NCBI RefSeq assembly: GCF_009834535.1
Contig: NC_045696.1
Span: 75,208,001 to 75,272,000 of the forward strand
Source: Camelus ferus
Taxonomy: Eukaryota
Reading direction: 5' to 3'
DNA: 64,000 bases
Below, piece by piece: positions 5,418-50,687 of the stretch. Position numbers and translations under genes: made by a program. The notes under the pieces were generated by a model. That model was not told the origin of the DNA. It saw only the letters and a program-made list of their open reading frames with translations, and ran no database searches. The stretch's first letter is position 1. Every line of letters begins with the position of its first letter.

Positions 5418-5702
5418 TTATCTATTGATCCGCTGGATCCTCTCACAGAGCAGGGAGAGATACTGTGTGAGTTTCACCATGGCAACGATTGCCACGCCCC
5501 CAGCCATCATACATGTTGGCCAAAAGAGTGAATGGAACACCACATTGGAACTGTAGAGTTTGGTTAGGATGACACTCTTCTGGTTTCCTTCCGGGTCAGA
5601 ATAGCAGGAGAAGTGTTGGTACTTCCTGAAGTTTTCCATGACAACATTCACCAGGGACATGGATTCTTCGAAATTTTTTCCGCACTTAGGTATATAGGAG
5701 CA
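5418..5702 (-). CDS. KCNMB2: KCNMB2 last coding exon (CSYIPKCGKNFEESMSLVNV...LLCERIQRINR*, includes TM2)
   Basis: ORF 5418..5660(-) extended to the ttccacag|TGCTCC acceptor at 5703-5704. 285 nt. The four exons sum to 708 nt = 235 aa + stop. Confidence 0.97.
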   Translation of the reverse strand, partial: CSYIPKCGKNFEESMSLVNVVMENFRKYQHFSCYSDPEGNQKSVILTKLYSSNVVFHSLFWPTCMMAGGVAIVAMVKLTQYLSLLCERIQRINR

Positions 5703-5738
5703 CTGTGGAAAATGAGATAAACTGTCACCAGAAGATAC

Positions 5739-5756
5739 TGTGTGTGTGTGTGTGTG
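5739..5756. repeat. (TG)n microsatellite near the last-exon acceptor
   Basis: Direct read. Confidence 0.95.
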
Positions 5757-15225: not shown

Positions 15226-16873
15226 CTTCAAGGTTCTGATTTCCTGCAGTGCAGGAAATGTTTAATTTCTTTGCTCTCATGGTAGTTATGTGGGGGATCT
15301 CTGTAATAAGAGTCTGAGCTGTACTTTTTCATTTCTTACATGTTTCACAGTTAAAAGTAAGGTAAATAAACCAAACAATGACCTAGTATTGTGCTGACAG
15401 CAGATAAGATACTGGTCCTAAATTTTTAACGGAGACTTTCTCTGAAAGGTTCACTCCCTGTGTATAGCCTAAATAATGCGTTCACAGGGCTGCAGTCATA
15501 AAATGTCATAACGGGGAAATGGATATTGGTCCCACTTTTTGATGCCTATTTAACTTTGGCTAATTTTTAATTCCTTGGAGACTTGAGAGTTTTATAGGCA
15601 TTACTTACTCAGTCATTACATGACTATTAGGTCAGTTTTTATTTAAAAATCTGACTTAAGGGATTGTGAAAAATATACACTTTGTGATTGTGAGAGAGCT
15701 AAGCTATATTTGCAGAACAGGGTTAGGACTGGTATTGTTTGTGGGCACCACAAAGGAAAGGCAATCAGAGCAGACTTTTGTGTCCTCAGAGATATTTACA
15801 AGAATTCTTTTAACTTACTGTAATCAAAATGCAAGGTGGGTTTCCTAGTTTGTGTCAGTATATCACAAAACAAATCCCATGTTCTAGTATCACACTTTAA
15901 AGCTACTGCATTTTTTTCAGTACATATAGTCTATGTCATTTGAGTGCTGATAATTGTAATGAAAAAAAATTTTTAAGAGAAAGATCCTTATGATGAGAGT
16001 CAATTGTTGTATTGGAGAATGGCCTGTTGTCTTGATATATGAGTACTCTGGCCATCTAAATTGTTACCATAAATTCAAAACTTAGTATATTTAACTTAAA
16101 ATTGATAATGGCAGATTGATTCTGCTGACACTTTACTGGTCATCCCATGCCTTATAAATGCAAATTTTATATGCAGCTTTAACATAATATGTGTTTGTTG
16201 AGCCTCCAACATGTGGACTTGAATATATCAGTGCTGGAAAATTCAGCGTCTATGAACATAATATATAAGGAGATATACACACAGGCACATATATTGTGAC
16301 CATGGGTTGAAGATCTTGCCTGTGCTCTGCTCAACACTTTACGTACCCTGCCCTTATCCCCAGAATGACCTTACAAGATGGTCATTGTTATTGCCTTTTT
16401 AGAGAAAAGGATACTGAGGCTCAGAGAGGTTAAGTTACATTCCAAGACCACAAAACTAAGTGACAATGGCCATGGAAAATCAAAATAGAGTTTTACCGTA
16501 TGGCTCCCAGGTATATAACAAACATCTGGTTTTTGGCTTGTCCAACTCTGTCTAAGCTGCACATTTGCTTTAAAAGACTCAATCTATTTGTGTCTCAATA
16601 AGGATATGATGTCTATCCTTCTAAATGGAAGTAAAGGCTAAATCTGCACTGCCACAAAATCGGGGAATGATTTGACCACCAGTTGCACAGAAAATAAATG
16701 TTTCCTAAGCAAGATTCAAATACTGTAGTGAGTTCTACACTGGATGAGGCAGGGCTTGCTTCCTAATGGCATTTTCCTTTGAAATAGTGGCTCAGGGAAC
16801 GTCAGAGAGAAAGAGATGAGCTGGAGTGGAGCTGTTTGGGGTGAATGAGATGCAGTGTGTGCCAAGCTCCTAC

Positions 16874-17069
16874 CTTCTGATTGATTTTCATTGTCTCTTC
16901 TGTGTGGTAGAGAAGGAGCTTTTCGCCGGAAGAAGTCAGGTTAACGTACACCTGGAGGCAGGGGTACTGAGAGAGTTTCCAGCAGTCTGGACCACAGCTG
17001 AAGGAGCAGTTAAATGTTTCTGTGATGGTTGCATTCAGCAAGGTGCATTGAGCCTCTTCGGTCCACACG
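16874..17069 (-). CDS. KCNMB2: KCNMB2 third coding exon (SVWTEEAQCTLLNAT...ETMKINQK, extracellular loop)
   Basis: Lies within ORF 16802..17185(-). ctgtag|CGTGTGG acceptor and CAGAAG|GTAGG donor. 196 nt. Loop cysteines and three N-glycosylation sequons (NAT, NCS, NLT). Confidence 0.97.
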
Positions 17070-18791
17070 CTACAGAGAGAGGGCGAGAGTAAGCACAGGC
17101 CCAAATGCCAATGGCAAAGAAGGTGTAATGGGAGGGGATAATTTGTCAGGAACTTGACCTGAAAAATCTTCCAAATCTGTAACACAACCTACTTGTTAAC
17201 ATGTATGCCTTTGAATAGAGCAGCCTTAGGCTAACTACGATATAAACATAGATAAACTTTGCCTGGCATCTGAGAACTTTTCCAGTGACTTCCTTCGGAT
17301 TTAGTATCATCTTCTCCAATGCTTGCTTTAAGTTATATATTTTTTCCTCATCAGATTCACTGGTAAGCATAAGGCATCTTTTTGAATCACAACCTGCACC
17401 CAACCCTGAATCTTTACATTGTAAGCAGCTTCCAGCCATGCCCTGGTCCTCACCTCATGATGTCTGCCCAGTTTGTAGGCAGAGAGGTATAAGGGAGAAG
17501 GGGAGGAGAGAGGGCGAAAGAGTGGAGGAGCTTGAGGTCCAATGTGACAGATGGAAGGACAGTGATAGATTTCTTTAAGGGAGAAAAGTTAACTCCACCT
17601 TTTGGTTATACCAAGAGCAATCATTTGTTGCATCCCCCTTAACCCTAATGAGTGCTTTACATATACTATCTTCTTTTGTTTTCCCAACAACCCTGTAGAT
17701 TGGGTATTAATTCCTTCTAAAAGTGAGTGAATTGATGGTCAGAGAAACCAAATAACATGCAAGGACACTCAGCTAGTGTCTCTAATGCGCAGGCTCATTC
17801 CATGGTGCTGTGCTGCTGCCCACAAACACAGTGGACAAGAGGCCCTTCTGTGCAGATTAAGGGGCTCCTATCTGTGCCCTGGGACTCTCAATTAGAAAGA
17901 TTAAACAAACAAAAACCCTTCCAGCTGCCCATTGGTTAGCTTTTCATTCTGAAATATTTATAATTTTATGATAAAGGGTAATATTTGTGATTAGGAAGTA
18001 ACACACCCAGAATCAATGTTTTGCTTCTAGATATAAGGTGATTACTATAGTGGTCAGAAAACAGCATGTTTCTTTGAAAATTAATAACCCTTCTTTTTGC
18101 TGGACATGTGTTGACAGGGCCCCCTTTTCATGTCCAGTTTTATGTCAGGGCCAGGATACTAGCCCTGACTGCCTCTAAGGTGGCAAATTGTATTTTCCTG
18201 TAATGTGGGTGGTCAGATTTTGCTTACACGAGGAGGAAAAAAATCTTAGATGGTTCTCAGCAGATGTGAGTATCTGAAAGCAGTTTTGAAATCAGTGAAC
18301 TCTTGGGGCCTGAGGCATCAGCGCCTTCATTGAGAAGGAGCACAGCTGAAGGCATCAGAGAAACAGAGCAGAGCAGCCACAAATGGGAAAGATGCTGCCT
18401 TAATTTTAGTAAATTACTGTGTTTCAGCTGGATGTTGCTTCTAAAATGAAAGTATTAACTTAGGTGGGGAAATGAGTGCCACAAAATGGTTTGATTGTCT
18501 TTTGGATTTAAACCTCAATTTTTCATTTGAAAGAGCCTCGTTACTTTAAGCTGAAGCACTGTGAGACTTACCCTGTTAGTTATAGCAATGCTGGGTTTTC
18601 CTGTGCTCACAGTGTCCAATTTATGGACAACAGTTAGCTAGAGAGGTTGTGGAGATTTATCATGTGGCTTACGCAGGAGGGAACACACTTGCCATCTCAG
18701 TATTTAATTACTTCTTTATATTTTTGGTAAACCTAGTGCAAATAAGAAATGTTTAAAATCTGTTTTTTCTTTTTTAGAAGTTGGTGCATAG

Positions 18792-19250: not shown

Positions 19251-20259
19251 TATACCTACAGCTGTTTTTTAAAAATCATTGTTATTAAATAACATTATTG
19301 ATAAATGTTATGTGCTAGGCACTGTTCAAAGTTCTTTTCAAGAAAGTAGGTAAAGAAGAGGACTTCAGGCTGGTCAAGATGGCAGAGTGGTAGGACCACG
19401 AGCTTGCCTCTCCTTGTGACTACAGTGTAACCACAACTGAATGCCAAACAACCATCGAGAAAAGATTGGAACCTAGCAAAAATATAAAGAGCGAACCACA
19501 GCAGGATGGTAGGAGGAGCGTGCTTGTGATATAATTGGGCCCCCTACCCCCCAGGTGGGCAACCCACAAGCTGAAGATTTGTTAAGTCGCAGAGGCCCTC
19601 CCGCAGGAGTGAGAGCTCTAAGCCCCATGTCAGGCTGCCCAGCTCGGGTCTCAGCATTGGGAAGAGAAGGAGACCCCAGGACACCTGGTTTTGAAGGCCA
19701 GTGGGGCTTGGCTCTGGGAGCCTCGTGGGACTGGGGGAAACTGAGAGGCGTACATGGAAACTCACATGCACCAGGTCCAAGGGCAGAGGCAATGATTTCA
19801 TAGGAACCTGGGCCAGACCTGCCTACTGGATTTGGAGGGTCTCCTGGGGATGTAGGGGATGGCTGTGGGTCACTCAGGGGGCATAAAGCTGGTGGCAGAC
19901 ATTCCAGGAGTGTTAATCTACATGACTTTCCTGGAGGCTGATATCTTGATTGGATCATTAGCACCAAGACCTAGCTCCACCCAACAGCCTGTAGGGAAGC
20001 CTCAGGCCAAACAACAGACAGGGTGGGAACACAGCCACACCCATCATCAGACTTCCTAAGCCACAAAGGCCTCTAGACACAGCCCTGCCCACCAGAGGTC
20101 CAGGACAAAGCTTCACCCAGCAGTGGGCAGGCACCTGCTCCTCCTGTCAGGAAACCTGCATAAGCCTCTAGTCCAGCCTCATCCACCAGAGGCAGATACT
20201 AGGAATAAGAAAACAATAATCCCAAAGCCTGTGGAAGGAATCCACAAACACATAAAAAG

Positions 20260-21153
20260 ATGAGGTGGCAAAGGAATACCTCCCAGGCCAAGGCAAAAGA
20301 TAAAATCCCAGAAGAAGAAATAAGTGATGAGGTGATAGCTAATTTATCTGAGAAAGAGTTTAAGGTAATGATAGTGAAGATGTTCAGAGAAGTCAAGAGG
20401 AGTATAGATGCACAAAGTGAAGTTTTTAGCAAAGAGCTGGAAAATATCAAGAATACCCAAACAGAGTTGAAGAATAAAATCACTGAAATGAACAATACAC
20501 AAGAAGGAACCAAGAATAGACTAAATGAGGCAGAAGAACGGATCGGTGAGCTAGAAGACAGATTAGTGGAAATCACTACTTCAGAACAGAAAAAAGAAAA
20601 AAGAATAAACAGGAATGAGGATAGTTTAAGAGAACTCTCGGACAACATGAACCACTCTAATATTCGCAATGTAAGGGGTCCCAGAAAGAGAAGAGAAAGA
20701 GAAAGGACCTGAGAAAAATTTTGGAGAGATAATAACAGAAAAATTCCCCAACTTGGGAAAGGAAACAGTCACCCAGGTCCTGGAAGTGCAGAGAGTACCA
20801 CACAGAATCAACCCAAAGAGGAACACACCAAGGCACATACTCATCAAATTTACAACAATTAAGGACAAGAAGAAAATATTACAATTAGCAAGAGAAAAGC
20901 AACGAATAACATACAAGGGAACTCCCATAAGGTTATCAGCTGATTTTTCAACAGAAACTCTACAGGCCAGAAGGGAGTGGCGTGATATATTTAAAGTGAT
21001 GCAAGGGGGAAACTTAACCAAGAATACTCTATCCAGCAAGGCTCTCATTCATACTTGATGGAGAAATCAAAAGCTTCACAGATAAACAAAAGCTGAAAGA
21101 TTTCAGCACCACCAAACCAGCCTTACAACAAATGTTAAAGGACTTTCTCTAGT
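20260..21153 (+). pseudogene. Frameshifted L1 ORF1p
   Basis: ORFs 20260..20712 (coiled coil, ...RLNEAEERIGELEDR...) and 20753..21058 (RINPKRNTPRHILIK, ITYKGTPIRLSADFSTETLQARREW) carry L1 ORF1p motifs. Confidence 0.93.
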
Positions 21154-21212
21154 CATCAAACCATAAGAAAAGAGAACACAAAGAAGAAAGAGAAAAAAAG
21201 AGACCTACAAAA

Positions 21213-21745
21213 GATTGCTTTGGCTGTCTGAGGCCTTCTGTGGTTGCTTATAAATTTTGGAATTGTTTGTTCTAGTTCTGTGAGGAATGTCGTGAGTATT
21301 TTGACAGGGGTTGCATTGGATCTGTGGATTGCTTTGGGTAGCGTGGCCATTTTGATAGTGTTGATTCTCCCAATCCAAGAGCACAAGAAATCTTTCCATT
21401 TCTTTGTGTCATTTCAGTTTTCAGAGTATAGGTAACCTCCTTGGTTAAGTTTATTTCTAGATATTTTGTTGTATTTTGATGTTTTTGATGCCAGTTATAA
21501 AATTCTGGTTTTTGAAGTGGAAAAAAAAAGTGAATGAAGGGCAGCAAATGGCAAAGTCATCTTTTTTATAGGTGAGTTGTACTCCATTATATGTGTGTAT
21601 GAGTGTGTGTGTGTGTGTGTGTATAAATATACTGCATCTTCATTATCTATTCAACTATTGATGTGCACTTAAGATGTTTCCATATCTTGGCAATTATAAA
21701 TAATGTTGCTGTTAATAGCAGGGTGTATGTATCTTTTTGAGTTAA
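21213..21745 (-). mobile_element. Inverted L1 ORF2 fragments within the chimeric insertion
   Basis: ORF 21156..21386(-) [21 protein letters not shown] is L1 ORF2. 21541-21745 resembles the ORF2 C-terminal region on the minus strand. Confidence 0.85.
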
Positions 21746-21864
21746 TCCTTATTGTGTGGTTGGCTTTATTCCTTTGATAACTATGTAAGTTTAAGAAGCT
21801 AAAGCTCTAAACATTCTTAGAAACAATGAACAGTACATATATGTAAATTTAAAAACATATGTGC

Positions 21865-22394
21865 AGTAAAAAAAAGATCTATCAAGCCATGAAAGACATT
21901 GAAGAAACTTAAAAGACGGATTACTAAATGAAAGAAGCCAGTCTGAAAAGGCTACAAACTGTACGACTCCAACCAAATGACATTCTGGAAAAGGCACAGC
22001 TACAGAAACAGTAAAAAGGTCATGGTTTCCAGGGGTTTGGGGAGAGGGAGGGAGGGAGGAATGAATAGATGGAGCACAAGGGACTTTTAGGGCAATGAAA
22101 TTATTCTGTATGATACTATAGTGGTGCCTACATGTCATTATGCAGTTCTCAAAGCCCATAGAATGTTCAACATCAAGAGTGAACCCTAATGTAAACTATG
22201 GACTTTGGTTGATAATAATGTATCCATGTTGATTCATCGATTGTACCAAATATGCCACACTGATGAGGGATATTCAGGGTAGGGGAGAAAAATGTGTGGA
22301 TGGGGAGGGCTATGTGTGAACTTTATATTTTCTGCCCAATTCTGTTGTGAACCTGAAACTGTTCTAAAAGAATAAAGTCTATTAAAAAAAAAAA
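21865..22394 (+). mobile_element. Old L1 3' end (L1MC1-like)
   Basis: ctatcaagccatgaaagaca...gaaagaagccagtctgaaaaggctac...gagtgaaccctaatgtaaactatggactttg...aataaagtctatt-polyA, recognised from memory of the consensus. Confidence 0.75.
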
Positions 22395-22485
22395 GAAGAA
22401 GAAGAGGACTTCAGGATAGGTAAGTTGTTGGGGAGGAGGGAAAAGGGAGACAAAAGACAGTGTCCCAACCACCCAGTGGCATTAC

Positions 22486-22656
22486 CTCTGCATGTATGAG
22501 CGCAGGAGTGTGATTCCCAGCAGGAAGTACATCATGATGGAGCACACCATCATGGCCAGTCCTAGGAGAATGGCCCGGTCCTCTCCTGCTTTCAGTGCTG
22601 TGACAGTTTTCCTTTTGTCCAGGAGGTCGTGGTCCCTGATTTTTTGGTAAATATTT
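22486..22656 (-). CDS. KCNMB2: KCNMB2 second coding exon (RNIYQKIRDHDLLDKRKTVTALKAGEDRAILLGLAMMVCSIMMYFLLGITLLRSYMQ, includes TM1)
   Basis: tcag|AAATATT acceptor and CAGAG|GTAATG donor. 171 nt, in frame with the flanking exons. Translation matches BK beta-2. Confidence 0.97.
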
Positions 22657-38334: not shown

Positions 38335-38390
38335 CTTTTCTCATCGTGTCTGTAAGTTGAAGAGGTCCGACCACTGGTCCATATGAACAT
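38335..38390 (-). CDS. KCNMB2: KCNMB2 first coding exon, CDS part (MFIWTSGRTSSTYRHDEK-, N-terminal inactivation ball)
   Basis: Manual translation of the reverse complement gives ATG TTC ATA TGG ACC AGT GGT CGG... AAA AG|GTAA. The MFIW N-terminus is characteristic of BK beta-2. 56 nt, phase compatible with the next exon. Too short for the ORF track. Confidence 0.97.
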
Positions 38391-38457
38391 CTTAGAGGAT
38401 GTTGGTCCAGAGGCTCCTTTCCTTATGGTGGAAGTCTTGGAGGAATGGCGAAAAGAC
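38391..38457 (-). other. KCNMB2: 5' UTR part of the ATG-containing exon (67 nt; whole exon 38335-38457, 123 nt)
   Basis: Acceptor ...gtacctcttctag|GTCTTTT on the minus strand at 38458-38460. An acceptor implies a further upstream non-coding exon, which I could not locate in this window. Confidence 0.85.
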
Positions 38458-38586
38458 CTAGAAGAGGTACATACTGAAGTTAAAGATTCATTACTTAAAG
38501 TTTGGGGGACTCTGTGTCAACAGCAAACAATAACTCTCAGAGGACTGATCATTTAAATAAGACTAAGTTTCTTTTGCTGTGGGGAA

Positions 38587-46215: not shown

Positions 46216-48188
46216 GAAACTAGAATGTAAGAATGTCATATTGTATCAGTACACTATATATATAACATGAATATATGCAAATTAATATACATATCTATGT
46301 TAATATATGGCTACATATGACATCATATAATAATATGTGTGAGTTAATATATGAAAAGTACAACATGGTAGGAATTAAGTATATTATTACCTCTTGGGAA
46401 TGGGTTAAATATACATTAGATTTAGAAGATATTGGAATCTGTATAAAGGTTCACACCATTAAATATATTCAATAGACATTCATAAATGTGGTCTTTAGTT
46501 TTTAATGGAGAGAAGAGTGGAGGAAAGAGTGAGCCATTGAAGCAGCACTGCCATTAACTAGTCTCTTAACTGAGGCCCTTTGCCTCCTGGCCCCCTACTC
46601 CTCAGATGTAATGTGAGGAAATTGAAAGACATGACCCTCAGTTTCCTTTCATCTGAAAAATTTTATTTTATTCTGCTTTGGAAAATTGCAATCAAGGTCT
46701 GTTCCTATGACTTACTTGACTTCTAATTTGTCTCTGGTTAGATATAATTTCTCTCTATTTTGCATTCTTTTGATTCCTTAAATGCAGTATTCAGTAATGC
46801 TCATGGGAAATCTAACAAAGTAGAGGGAGGAGAGAGTAGGCACCAAATGGAAAGGTGAAGTGAAAGCCTTCCAACGATCTTTGAAAAGGGTTTTTATGGA
46901 TTCAGGCAATGCTCTAGAGCTGGACATCTTGGGCAGAAACCTTGTTTTTGTTGTCAGGATTCCAACAGTCTCTTCCACAGGATTTCTTCCACTCTCCATG
47001 CTGCCTCCTCATGTAGCCCCTTCTTTAACCCACTGGTTAAACCACTGTTCTATCCCTAGGGGAGCTGTGACGATGGGAATTTTAGGTGCTATGACAGGTT
47101 GGTGAGGGAGATATTTGGGGAAGCAAGAAAATATGGTTCATAGTTCCTACTCTGTCCAGCTGTGGTGGTCGTTGGGTGAACTATAATCAAATTTGTCTTT
47201 CCCAGTAGGTGCTCTGAACTGACTACTGATAATATATGTAAAATTCTACTCCTGGAGGAAACCAGCATCCTCAACTCAGTGTTCTCAACATCAAATCGAG
47301 TAACCCAGCCCTTCCTTTTTGCCATTGGAGCAAAGATCCCTGTTTTATGTTCATGTCTTTCATATGCAACAGTGGTGAGAAAACATGAACTCTGGAAGTA
47401 GAAAAAACTGAGTTCAATTTCTGGCCTTTTTTCTATCAATTTATTGTGAGGATTAATTAAAATAATGAATCTGACATTATTAGCAACTATTTATCTATAT
47501 ATATATATATAGCTATTTATTCACGTTCATAAATAAATGTTTATTTACTTATGTATCCTAATATATCTAGTATGCCAAATTAAGACCATTATTCTGACTG
47601 AAGGGATTTGAGACAGAATTCAGAGTAGTCACTGAATATTGGCATTTTAAAGCTGGAAGAGCTATCAGGTATTCTAGGCCATATGCCAGTATTGAGACTT
47701 GGTGTATTTTGATTTTCTTAGTTCACACAGTTAAATATATTCAATAGACATTTATAAATGTGGTCTTTAATTTTTTTTAAGGCTGTGGGTAAAAGGCAAA
47801 TGTCTGTAATTGTAAAAGTAGGTTTTCACAATGGAAAAGGCACTAAGCAGGCAAAGGAAAAGATATTTTAAATTGTAAATCCTGTTTTAACCTAGTGGGA
47901 AGGGCCTGTTCTTGAAGATAAAAGAAAAAAAAAAACCTCAGCAATAGGAGTTGTAATTCTTTTTTGATGGATACAGGTTGAAGAAAAACCTATTCAAACT
48001 GCTTGGATTCTATAGTGAAAGACTCTTGAGAAATATTAAACTGGATATTTAGTCATCTTTTAAACCTAAATTTTCACAGTTGTCTGGGAAGTGCCTGATG
48101 TGATGATTCAATTACTGAGGAAGCTCCATAAATAATATAAATACCTTGGAAGGGTTTGATTAAAGAGCTCAAATCTACATTTTGTAGC

Positions 48189-48280
48189 TTTTTTTTTTTT
48201 TAATAATTTAATAGACTTTATTCTTTTAGAGCAGTTTCAGGTTCACAACAGAATTGAGCTGTAGATACAGCGTTCACACA
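48189..48280 (-). mobile_element. Third short copy of the L1MC-like 3' terminus (poly-A end)
   Basis: poly-T then aatagactttattcttttagagcagtttcaggttcacaacagaattgagc...gttcacaca, repeating ~48500-48575. Confidence 0.9.
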
Positions 48281-48381
48281 GGAGAGGACCGGGCCATTCT
48301 CCTGGGACTGGCCATGATGGTGTGCTCCATCATGATGTACTTCCTGCTGGGAATCACACTCCTGCGCTCATACATGCAGAG
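48279..48381 (+). pseudogene. Inverted partial copy of the KCNMB2 TM1 exon (GEDRAILLGLAMMVCSIMMYFLLGITLLRSYMQ) with its splice donor
   Basis: Reverse complement of 22486-22588 with 1 mismatch in 103 nt (CTG vs CTA, synonymous). Followed by GTAATGCCACTGG intron sequence. Confidence 0.95.
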
Positions 48382-49192
48382 GTAATGCCACTGGGTGGTT
48401 GGGACACCGTCTTTTGTCTCCCTTTTCCCTTCTTCCCAGCAACTTATCAATCCTGAAGTCCTCTTCTTCTTCTTCTTCGTTGTCTTCTTTTTTTTTTTTT
48501 TTTAATAGAACTTTATTCTTTTAGAGCAGTTTCAGGTTCACAACAGAATTGAGCAGAAAATACAGAGTTCACACATAGCCCTCCCCATCCACACATTTTT
48601 CTCCCCTACCCTGAATATCCCTCATCAGTGTGGCATATTTGGTACAATCGATGAATCAACATGGGCACATTATTATCAACTGAAGTCTATAGTTTACATT
48701 AGGGTTCACTACTGATATTGTACATTCTATGGGCTTTGAGAAATGCGTAATGACATGTAGCCACCACTATAGTATCATACAGAATAATTTCATTGCCCTA
48801 AAACTTCCTTGTGCTCCATCTATTCATTCCTCCCTCCTTCCCTCTCCCCAAACCCCTGGAAACCATGATCTTTTTACTGTTTCTGTAGCTGTGCCTTTTC
48901 CAGAATGTCATTTGTTTAGAATTGTACAGTTTGTAGCCTTTTCAGACTGGCTTCTTTCATTTAGTAATCCGTCTTTTAAGTTTCTTCAATGTCTTTCATG
49001 GCTTGATAGATCTTTTTTTTTTACTGCACATATAATTTTAAATTTACATATATGTACTGTTCATCATTTCTAAGAATGTTTAGAGCTTAGCTTCTTAAAC
49101 TTACATAGTTATCAAAGGAATAGAGCCAACCACACAATAAGGATTAACTCAAAAATATACATACACCCTGCTATTAATAGCAACATTATTTA
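48279..49192 (+). repeat. Inverted segmental duplicate of 21697-22588
   Basis: Colinear match through exon, intron, (CTT)n/poly-T, L1MC-like 3' end, ~120 bp unique sequence and ~50 bp of L1 ORF2 end. ORFs 21791..22159(-) and 48729..49073(+) are near-identical. About 95% identity by eye. Confidence 0.95.
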
Positions 49193-50529
49193 AGATCTTG
49201 GGTTCTACATTCAGGACTAAGAATCCGGGAGACTAACCAAGAAGATAAGTGACTGACAGAATTTGAAATCCTATTTATTCTTTAACCCACACATCTATCC
49301 CTAAATTGGAAAGAGGCAACATAGATCAAGCAGAAGGGGTTTCTTTTACCTCTCACTTTCATTCCTTGCTCTGTGACATGGGATGAGTTAATTAACCTCT
49401 CTGAATCTCAATTTCCTTATCTGTAAAAAATGAAGGTTGTAATATCTATCTCCAACAATTGAAGGAGGGAGAAACTGATAGCCAAAGAAGAGAAAAAATG
49501 TTAGGAAGACTTTCTGAAAAGGACAGTTGAATAGGCTCACTGATGTGAGCATCGTATGTGGGGGTTGGGTGAGAGATTGGTGCTTCCTGAAGCAGAGGTC
49601 CATGTTTATATAGCAGTGGTGGGTGTAGAGCTGTGAAAAGCAAGTTTGGGAAGAGTTGATAATTGATGCAGTGGGATTCATCATTGCACTTTCCTTTTGT
49701 TTCTTAAATATTAATATAAGATGAGTCTCTCTTTTAAAGCAGTGATTCTTAATCCTTTCCCCTTCATGATGCATATTTTCTTGCACTCCACTCCATGGGC
49801 ATTATCAAGGCCAGGCTGCAGAATAGGCTCCCAGTTACGCTATCCTATTCATAATCAGTCACAGCACACTGTGTCTTGTCATCCCAGCTGAAAACTAATG
49901 ATTAAATTATTACATTCTTGTGGGGGCGGTGGTAAGGAAGAGTCCAGTGACAGGTACCAGGAGCTGAGTTCGAATGCTAGAGCTATAGGGGGTGACATCC
50001 TAACTGGCTAGTCCAGAGCCAGCAGACAAATCCAGGTCAAAGAGTGAAGTGCAAGTGCAAAGTCTAACATCAAGGTTCAATTCAGATTCAAAGACTGGCC
50101 TCAGTGGGTTCCCAGGGGAGAAAGGTGGTTCAGGACCATGGAGAACAAGATGCTGGCCTCCCCTACTCTCAGGATTTGAGAGGATTTAAGACTTGCTTGG
50201 CTCTAGGATGCAAGGAGTAAGCCTGGAGCAAATAAGGAGAGGGTCGTGGCACAACTGAGACAGACTTGGAAGCAAGTGCCTTCCATCTTTATTGGTCACT
50301 GTGTGATTTTTTGCTTTCCTCCTTATTGACCGTGTGGCTTTGAGTTGGCAATTAAGCGTACCTTAGCCTGTTTCTTTATTTTTAAAACGAAATTATTATT
50401 GGCATATAGAAGGAACTCAACCAAGTAGCTCTTCTTAATGGATTTACCTCAAAGCTTCAAGTTGTGTCAAGGTCAAAAGATGACCCATTTATTTCTTTCT
50501 GAACTTTCTCATCTTACTTCAACTGAAAC

Positions 50530-50687
50530 ATAAGATCAAAATAAAGCTCTCCTCACACTCTCTTTTACCATATTGCTTTCAAAATAAAGCTCTCCTCACA
50601 ATCTCTTTTGCCATATTGCCATATTGCTTTCATATAAGATCAAAATAAAGCTCTCCTCACACACTCTCTTTTGCCATATTGCTTTCA
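50530..50687. repeat. Imperfect tandem triplication of a ~45-55 bp unit
   Basis: caaaataaagctctcctcaca...ctcttttrccatattgc occurs three times in succession. Confidence 0.9.

Follow-up and report, generated by a model that had tools for sequence, protein, structure and literature searches.

Moran, DeBerardinis and Kazazian are said to have described in 1999 the 3' transduction and exon shuffling carried out by L1 (LINE-1) retrotransposons. Inverted pairs of intronic repeats promote loop-out exon skipping or the formation of circular RNA. Editing-site complementary sequences (ECS) occur in ADAR targets such as GRIA2 and Gabra3; those described so far sit near their exon, as a rule in the neighbouring intron, and are conserved. 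Half-L1 (HAL1) elements are non-autonomous L1 derivatives that carry ORF1 only (Bao and Jurka 2010, as cited in PMC4859970). In 3'-L1 chimeras, as outlined in the relevant passages of PMC13174262, another RNA is joined 5' of an L1 3' segment in the same orientation, via template switching or RNA ligation. Here we describe an inverted duplicate within the gene KCNMB2 of Camelus ferus, located in a stretch of 64,000 nt (contig NC_045696.1, positions 75,208,001 to 75,272,000; hereafter the window). The duplicate contains part of the exon encoding the first transmembrane segment (TM1) together with its splice donor, and it lies upstream of that exon in the same gene. We conclude that it is probably a chimeric retro-copy that the L1 machinery made from a read-through transcript, most likely neutral and not a purpose-built regulator.

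The inverted duplicate in KCNMB2

KCNMB2 is encoded on the minus strand of the window. Its TM1 exon, of 171 nt, was delimited at 22486..22656 from the sequence and its translation (acceptor cag/AAATATT, donor CAGAG/gtaatg; the slash marks the splice site here and below). Positions 48279-49192 are the reverse complement of 21697-22588, and BLAST joined the two in a single gapped alignment of 915 columns with 93.2% identity, 38 mismatches and 24 gap columns. The same inversion was recovered by a repeat search as three ungapped pieces, of 538 nt at 94% (21868-22405 with 48483-49020), 230 nt at 90% (22359-22588 with 48279-48508) and 106 nt at 97% (21697-21802 with 49087-49192). In the MAFFT alignment of the pair, the 38 mismatches fall among 891 aligned positions, giving 95.7% identity and a Kimura two-parameter distance (K2P) of 0.044. 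The longest perfectly identical blocks between the inverted arms measure 103, 99 and 97 nt. A first-pass annotation of this DNA had claimed the duplicate; BLAST and MAFFT show it to be real, with the coordinates and mismatch counts exactly as given there.

The arm beside the TM1 exon (21697..22588, plus strand), which we call the source arm, was resolved by the repeat search, BLAST and MAFFT into 688 nt of L1-derived 3' sequence, an A-tail and (GAA)n tract with a target-site duplication (TSD), 70 nt of intron, the splice donor and 103 nt of the TM1 exon in antisense. Whole-window self-BLAST, a comparison that the first-pass annotation had proposed, returned two inverted pairs at E<=1e-10, both within the KCNMB2 duplicate structure, so that this is the only substantial inverted pair in the 64 kb. 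Four short direct pairs were found at the same threshold. With two inverted and four direct pairs, the window is unusually repeat-poor for an intron-rich mammalian region. The unique 192-nt stretch of exon and intron was found at exactly two places in the 2.09-Gb assembly (two candidates, two scored), and these are the two arms. Rfam gave no matches within the window.

The source retroelement beside the TM1 exon

The first-pass annotation had described the remainder of the duplicate as ~0.7 kb of further intron. That stretch is indeed duplicated, but it is not plain intron: it is the 3' end of a 3.03-kb L1-derived retroelement. Pfam, family alignments and the TSD define the source element at 19370..22398 on the plus strand, where it lies antisense to KCNMB2 within the intron that follows the TM1 exon. 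Its 5' TSD, AAGAAGAGGACTTCAGG, occupies 19353..19369 (plus strand) and matches 22399-22415 perfectly over 17 nt. The element's 3' end at 22371-22394 reads AATAAAGTCTATT plus A11, with an AATAAA signal before the A-run, and directly after this A-tail stands the 17-mer again as the 3' TSD (22399..22415, plus strand), which BLAST finds in the copy too. The TSD ends 70 nt from the TM1 donor. Pfam recognises the L1 ORF1 domains Tnp_22_trimer, Transposase_22 (E 4.6e-23) and Tnp_22_dsRBD at 20209-21055 on the plus strand. L1 ORF2 needs ~3.8 kb. Since only 3.03 kb separates the perfect TSDs, the source element has no room for ORF2.

The element belongs to a large family. At least 6138 candidates in the 2.09-Gb genome match its 3' 688 nt, and among the 40 of these that were scored, unrelated members are 91-93% identical to the source. 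Six of ten sampled relatives are collinear with the source from the edge of the sampled locus (20186-20252) to 22385-22403, and the other four begin at 21280, 21401, 21620 and 21683. At the 5' end of the element (GGCTGGTCAAGATGGCAGAG...), the alignment starts at 19373 in all three relatives that were extended upstream. Collectively, these features indicate that the source is a full-length member of an abundant, half-L1-like family of ORF1-only L1 derivatives, and that it arrived as a genuine full-length retro-insertion. The source element contains a (TG)n microsatellite at 21600-21625, just upstream of the point at which the copy starts.

Derivation of the copy from the source locus

On the gene's strand, the product consists of a 5'-truncated L1-derived 3' end, an internal A-tail, the TSD, 75 nt of antisense intron, 103 nt of antisense exon, an L1 tail and A13, in that order. 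The L1-derived part (48503..49192, minus strand) is truncated at the match to source position 21697 and differs from the source at 31 of 687 positions by MAFFT; it is 95% identical to the source, compared with 91-93% for the other scored family members. The A-tail, (GAA)n tract and TSD are copied at 48457..48502 (minus strand), where the microsatellite has expanded and 20 of the 24 gap columns between the arms are placed by MAFFT. The intronic segment (48382..48456, minus strand), which includes the donor gtaatg, is antisense on the gene's strand and mismatched at 6 of its 75 positions. The exonic segment (48279..48381, minus strand) corresponds to the 3' 103 nt of the TM1 exon (22486-22588), likewise antisense on the gene's strand, with one mismatch in 103. 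This mismatch, at source position 22563, sets CTA against CTG, both Leu in our reading of the frame.

BLAST thus finds the source's own A-tail, 3' TSD, intron and exon fragment in the copy. The history of the L1-derived part was examined against ten other family members, drawn from the 40 scored matches of at least 6138 candidates, and a state was called derived when it was absent from at least 70% of these ten. Source and copy share 17 derived states, spread over 21747-22300, and carry 14 source-only and 22 copy-only private changes in the same part. The mean pairwise identity of the ten comparison copies is 93.5%, compared with 95.2% between source and copy. Because of the 17 shared derived sites and the presence of the source's TSD, intron and exon, we trace the copy to the KCNMB2 source locus. 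An independent insertion of the same family at 48.5-49.2 kb was ruled out by the shared derived sites together with the shared unique flank. The numbers of private and shared changes suggest that the source had accumulated ~2.5% private change when it was copied and that the arms have diverged by ~4.5-5% since. Mammalian neutral rates are 1e-9 to 2.2e-9 per site per year, and from the K2P of 0.044 we infer an age for the copy of roughly 10-22 million years.

Ends and junctions of the copy

The copy begins to resemble the source at TAAATAATG, within the element. For each of the ten family loci, alignment to the copy ends at 49190-49196, and six of them run ~1.5 kb further upstream on the source. 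We read the 5' end of the copy as an ordinary 5' truncation.

At the other end, the last bases of the exon fragment, ...CCTCTCCTG, are followed immediately by TGTGAAC...AATAAAGTCTATTAAATTATT plus A13 (48189-48201). The sequence that abuts the exon fragment (48189..48280, minus strand) matches family termini and is a second L1-family 3' terminus of ~75-88 nt with AATAAA, followed by ATTATT and A13. The junction, cctctcc-TG-tgtgaac, has a 2-nt TG overlap and no A-run between exon and L1 tail. The final 64-94 nt of every one of the ten family loci align to this second tail in the same orientation; the tail itself is 84% identical to that of the source and 89% identical to the internal one of the copy. 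In the genome it has 1260 candidate matches, and the 39 scored besides itself are 88-95% identical to it.

A search of the 190 transduced nt for 12 poly(A) hexamer variants found none, and on the same strand an AATAAA first recurs 278 nt past the breakpoint. It follows that the breakpoint is no polyadenylation site, and this favours a template switch or a ligation. Classical 3' transduction was rejected as a full explanation, as the transduced stretch has no poly(A) signal and no A-tail at its end. Splicing of a read-through RNA onto a downstream L1 tail was also rejected, as inspection by eye found no GT/GC...AG at the breakpoints.

The flanks of the insert contain a candidate TSD, the 8-mer AATGTAGA, which is common to both 40-nt flanks. 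Its possible 5' copy (49204..49211, minus strand) stands 11 nt (ACCCAAGATCT) from the insert, and its possible 3' copy (48174..48181, minus strand) follows A13-GCTAC-AA. Sharing of at least 8 nt was seen in 110 of 5000 random flank pairs from the window (P ~0.022).

Two further observations concern the surroundings of the copy. Within the intron before the ATG exon, the copy introduces five AATAAA/ATTAAA hexamers that read in the direction of the gene, at 48517, 48506, 48222, 48212 and 48204, any of which might act as a premature polyadenylation site. At 50536-50619, ~1.3 kb upstream of the copy, a 43-nt unit is repeated in tandem (2.0 copies, 95% matches).

Origin of the duplicate

These structures suggest a course of three steps. 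The first is visible in the element and its flanks: a full-length 3.03-kb ORF1-only L1 derivative inserted antisense in the KCNMB2 intron and left a perfect 17-nt TSD. In the second, after ~2.5% of aging, a transcript of the element would have passed its own AATAAA and A-tail into the TSD, the intron and the antisense exon. In the third, which the structure of the copy points to, target-primed reverse transcription (TPRT) ~26 kb away would have begun on the poly(A) end of another L1-family RNA. After ~88 nt it would have switched to the read-through transcript at the 2-nt TG overlap, either by a template switch or because the two RNAs had been ligated beforehand, and it would have halted 0.9 kb further on, producing the 5' truncation.

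Several points weigh against this course of events. The candidate TSD is weak: it has 8 nt, is 11 nt off the 5' junction and lies behind GCTAC-AA on the 3' side. The target site, TG/AATG, fits the TT/AAAA endonuclease motif at 3 of 6 positions in our own reading. The count of shared derived sites is based on just ten comparison copies. Nor does the second tail fix the order of events: at 88-95% identity to other copies it looks as old as the family in general, and it may have been in place first. Furthermore, DNA-level repair with microhomology joining would yield an identical structure, and the evidence comes from one genome.

Such repair at the DNA level is the strongest alternative, although we regard it as unlikely. 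It would require a break at or in a pre-existing short L1 fragment near 48.2 kb, repaired by copying ~0.9 kb from the inverted element 26 kb away. Synthesis-dependent strand annealing or microhomology-mediated templated repair would have overrun the element into intron and exon and been joined through the 2-nt microhomology. Consistent with this, the 3' junction shows the TG overlap alone and no A-tail, the second L1 tail (84-89% identical to the other two tails) is as old-looking as the family, and the candidate TSD is poor and displaced. In addition, the arms are inverted on one chromosome 25.7 kb apart, a geometry that favours ectopic repair. The two boundaries of the copy argue for a different origin. 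The shared derived sites reach to within 50 nt of the 5' boundary (21747), and the target has no L1 homology beyond 49196, which would have left strand invasion without a primer and required two non-homologous junctions. The break would also need to have fallen exactly at the 5' edge of the L1 tail, and a 5'-truncated L1 end followed by a 3' L1 terminus and an A-run is the usual signature of TPRT. The lack of target homology beyond 49196, the shared derived sites near the boundary and the coincidence required of the break lead us to rate the DNA-level origin below TPRT of a chimeric template.

KCNMB2 exons around the duplicate

Pfam recognised three of the four exon translations submitted, and the identification of the gene as KCNMB2 in the first-pass annotation is borne out by a ball domain in the ATG exon and by CaKB in two downstream exons. 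The ATG, or inactivation-ball, exon (38335..38457, minus strand; ATG at 38390) lies between the arms, has a visible acceptor and donor and encodes KcnmB2_inactiv (E 4e-07). Exon 3 (16874..17069, minus strand; S/VWTEE...KINQK), whose 3' end is approximate, begins at the acceptor ctctctgtag/C and gave CaKB at E 3.2e-27 on the translation of 16805-17188. A further exon translation, at 5421-5756 on the minus strand, gave CaKB at E 1.2e-35. For the TM1 exon, whose translation has 57 aa, Pfam gave no match. More than 20 kb separates the ATG exon from exon 3.

Joined exons read ...HDEKRNIYQK...SYMQSVWTEE..., and without the 171-nt exon ...HDEKSVWTEE..., with the frame kept. The joined translations thus agree with the earlier statement that the TM1 exon has 171 nt and can be skipped in frame (...HDEK-S-VWTEE...). 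As the ATG exon has a canonical acceptor, cctcttctag/G at 38458/38457, at least one KCNMB2 exon must lie upstream of it. A promoter search did not locate the transcription start site: none of the 64 1-kb bins of the window resembled a CpG island (CpG observed/expected >0.6 with GC >0.5). Among the papers listed by a literature search on KCNMB2, exon skipping and inverted retrotransposons, none mentions KCNMB2. A human antisense long non-coding RNA, KCNMB2-AS1, has been published.

Possible effects on KCNMB2 splicing or editing

The first-pass annotation proposed that the copy is a lineage-specific cis-antisense splicing modulator: by pairing with the 3' part of the TM1 exon and its 5' splice site, it would loop out the ATG exon and promote skipping of TM1 or of both exons. 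We predicted the duplex formed by the unique 178 nt. It has an energy of -360.1 kcal/mol and 172 intermolecular pairs, compared with -56.0 and -65.7 for the single strands, and all nine positions of the donor GAG/GUAAUG are paired in it. A near-perfect duplex that buries the TM1 donor is thus thermodynamically feasible, as had been supposed, but no sign of selection for complementarity accompanies it. The mismatch pattern between the arms in the MAFFT alignment gave no signal of such selection, and the intron beside the donor is the most diverged, at 6/75. If just the copy were free to change, ~2.4 mismatches would be expected in the exon by our arithmetic, with a probability of ~0.31 for one or fewer. 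The exon's 1/103 therefore needs no selection on a duplex, because purifying selection on the real exon alone would give it.

We consider a modulator role very unlikely, although several features are consistent with it. By thermodynamics alone, the predicted duplex over the donor is strong, and TM1 skipping would keep the frame. The arms flank the ATG exon at the DNA level and form the sole long inverted pair in the 64 kb, which leaves the window without long competitors for pairing. The acceptor of the ATG exon implies that transcription starts somewhere upstream. Inverted intronic repeats are also known to promote loop-out skipping, as with the AluY pair of TBXT (as cited in PMC13019027). 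Against this, the arms are 25.7 kb apart, whereas the systematic study of loop-out in that paper examined flanks of up to 5 kb (PMC13019027). The two arms lie ~9.8 kb and ~15.7 kb from the ATG exon, beyond that 5 kb. If splicing is co-transcriptional, the intron with the copy can be removed while the polymerase still has ~16 kb to go to the TM1 donor. Without TM1, a beta-2 subunit would be expected to have the wrong membrane topology, and an origin as a by-product of retrotransposition requires no function. The copy is most likely neutral. A long double-stranded RNA over the 5' splice site could arise if the intron containing the copy outlasts transcription up to the TM1 exon. Counting against the neutral view, neutrality is here read from an absence of signal. 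The splicing-modulator role is at present an unsupported, open conjecture.

A broader form of the idea, which we would hold to be equally improbable, is that the copy acts as a 178-nt near-perfect antisense guide to the TM1 exon and its 5' splice site in the same pre-mRNA, either masking the donor or recruiting ADAR. If true, either effect would concern the transcripts in which the upstream intron persists. Donor masking would cause skipping of TM1, or of the ATG exon and TM1, and yield fewer inactivating beta-2 subunits. Recruitment of ADAR would recode TM1 codons, and the copy would be a newborn ECS whose mechanism of birth is visible.

Public sequencing runs were searched for words of a 1301-nt query (48100-49400), and 20 of the 24 rows returned contained part of it. 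DNA runs of five organisms held shares of 0.45-0.54 of the words, and two RNA runs held 0.51 and 0.44. We take these shares to be words of the L1 family and not evidence for the locus, its junctions, its expression or its species range, because L1-family sequence with thousands of near-copies makes up ~60% of the query and the shares in DNA and RNA runs are similar. The two RNA-seq runs, labelled reproductive-system, contain roughly half of the words sampled from the copy region, which may represent intronic KCNMB2 RNA, expressed L1-family copies or DNA carry-over.

An assembly artefact, in the form of a mis-joined or falsely duplicated segment, can hardly be credited: junction support rests on assembled sequence and not on reads, but 38 substitutions and four indel events separate the arms, both lie in one 64-kb stretch with no N, the ends are biologically coherent (L1 truncation, L1 tail, A13), and the private substitutions in each arm and the unequal microsatellite lengths make a duplicated or collapsed segment unlikely, as the first-pass annotation had argued from divergence.

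Significance and comparison with known systems

The duplicate is best read as a real, old, inverted retro-copy made by the L1 machinery, and retrotransposon-driven duplication is already a known kind of event. The locus would be a clean and datable case in which L1-type machinery has moved a piece of coding exon with a splice site. At this one place the steps are legible: a full-length source with a perfect TSD, read-through, the junction to a second L1 terminus and 5' truncation. It could serve as a worked case for chimeric L1 insertion and transduction, and it may help annotators, to whom the exon fragment is otherwise liable to appear as a pseudo-exon. Recombination between the arms would invert a 25.7-kb segment containing the ATG exon. 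If the copy did act on the pre-mRNA, an exon-complementary regulatory or editing element would have arisen in one step, and the supply of the inactivation-conferring BK beta-2 subunit would be altered in one mammalian lineage.

As with the ECS of ADAR targets, the copy is an intronic complement to a coding exon of its own gene that could make this exon double-stranded in the pre-mRNA, with a predicted 172 pairs at -360.1 kcal/mol. Unlike them, it lies two introns upstream and 26 kb away, is young, carries no conservation signal and is known from DNA alone. Inverted intronic repeats, such as inverted Alu pairs and the AluY/AluSx1 pair of TBXT cited in PMC13019027, resemble the KCNMB2 pair in that a lineage-specific retroelement insertion makes an inverted pair around an exon; at KCNMB2 the pair may lie within one transcription unit. 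In contrast to the cases in that account, the KCNMB2 arm includes the exon's own 3' part and 5' splice site, and the arms are 25.7 kb apart instead of a few kb; here too, DNA is the sole source for the KCNMB2 case.

The source element shares with HAL1, as characterised in PMC4859970, an L1 5' end, ORF1 and an L1 3' end, no room for ORF2 and many copies. This likeness is one of structure, and the source family may be an independent lineage-specific ORF2-deletion family. In common with L1 3' transduction, a weak poly(A) signal appears to have been bypassed, and unique 3' flank with the source TSD and exon moved together with a 5'-truncated element. The KCNMB2 copy differs in that the transduced stretch has no poly(A) signal or direct A-tail and ends in a second L1 terminus, and in that the exon is carried antisense and in part.

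The closest likeness in arrangement is to 3'-LINE-1 chimeras such as U6/L1, mRNA/L1 and Alu/L1 (PMC13174262), in which a foreign RNA is likewise joined directly 5' of a 3'-terminal L1 in the same orientation. As in the chimeras of that description, there is a terminal poly(A), here A13, no A-tail at the internal junction and a short overlap (PMC13174262). The chimeras described there have TSDs of 7-17 bp and the TT/AAAA motif, whereas the KCNMB2 copy has a candidate 8-nt TSD and a 3/6 motif match (PMC13174262). Its 5' partner also differs from theirs, being a read-through of an L1-derived element with host intron and antisense exon, and, in further contrast to the chimeras of PMC13174262, the KCNMB2 copy landed back in the same gene, in inverted orientation.

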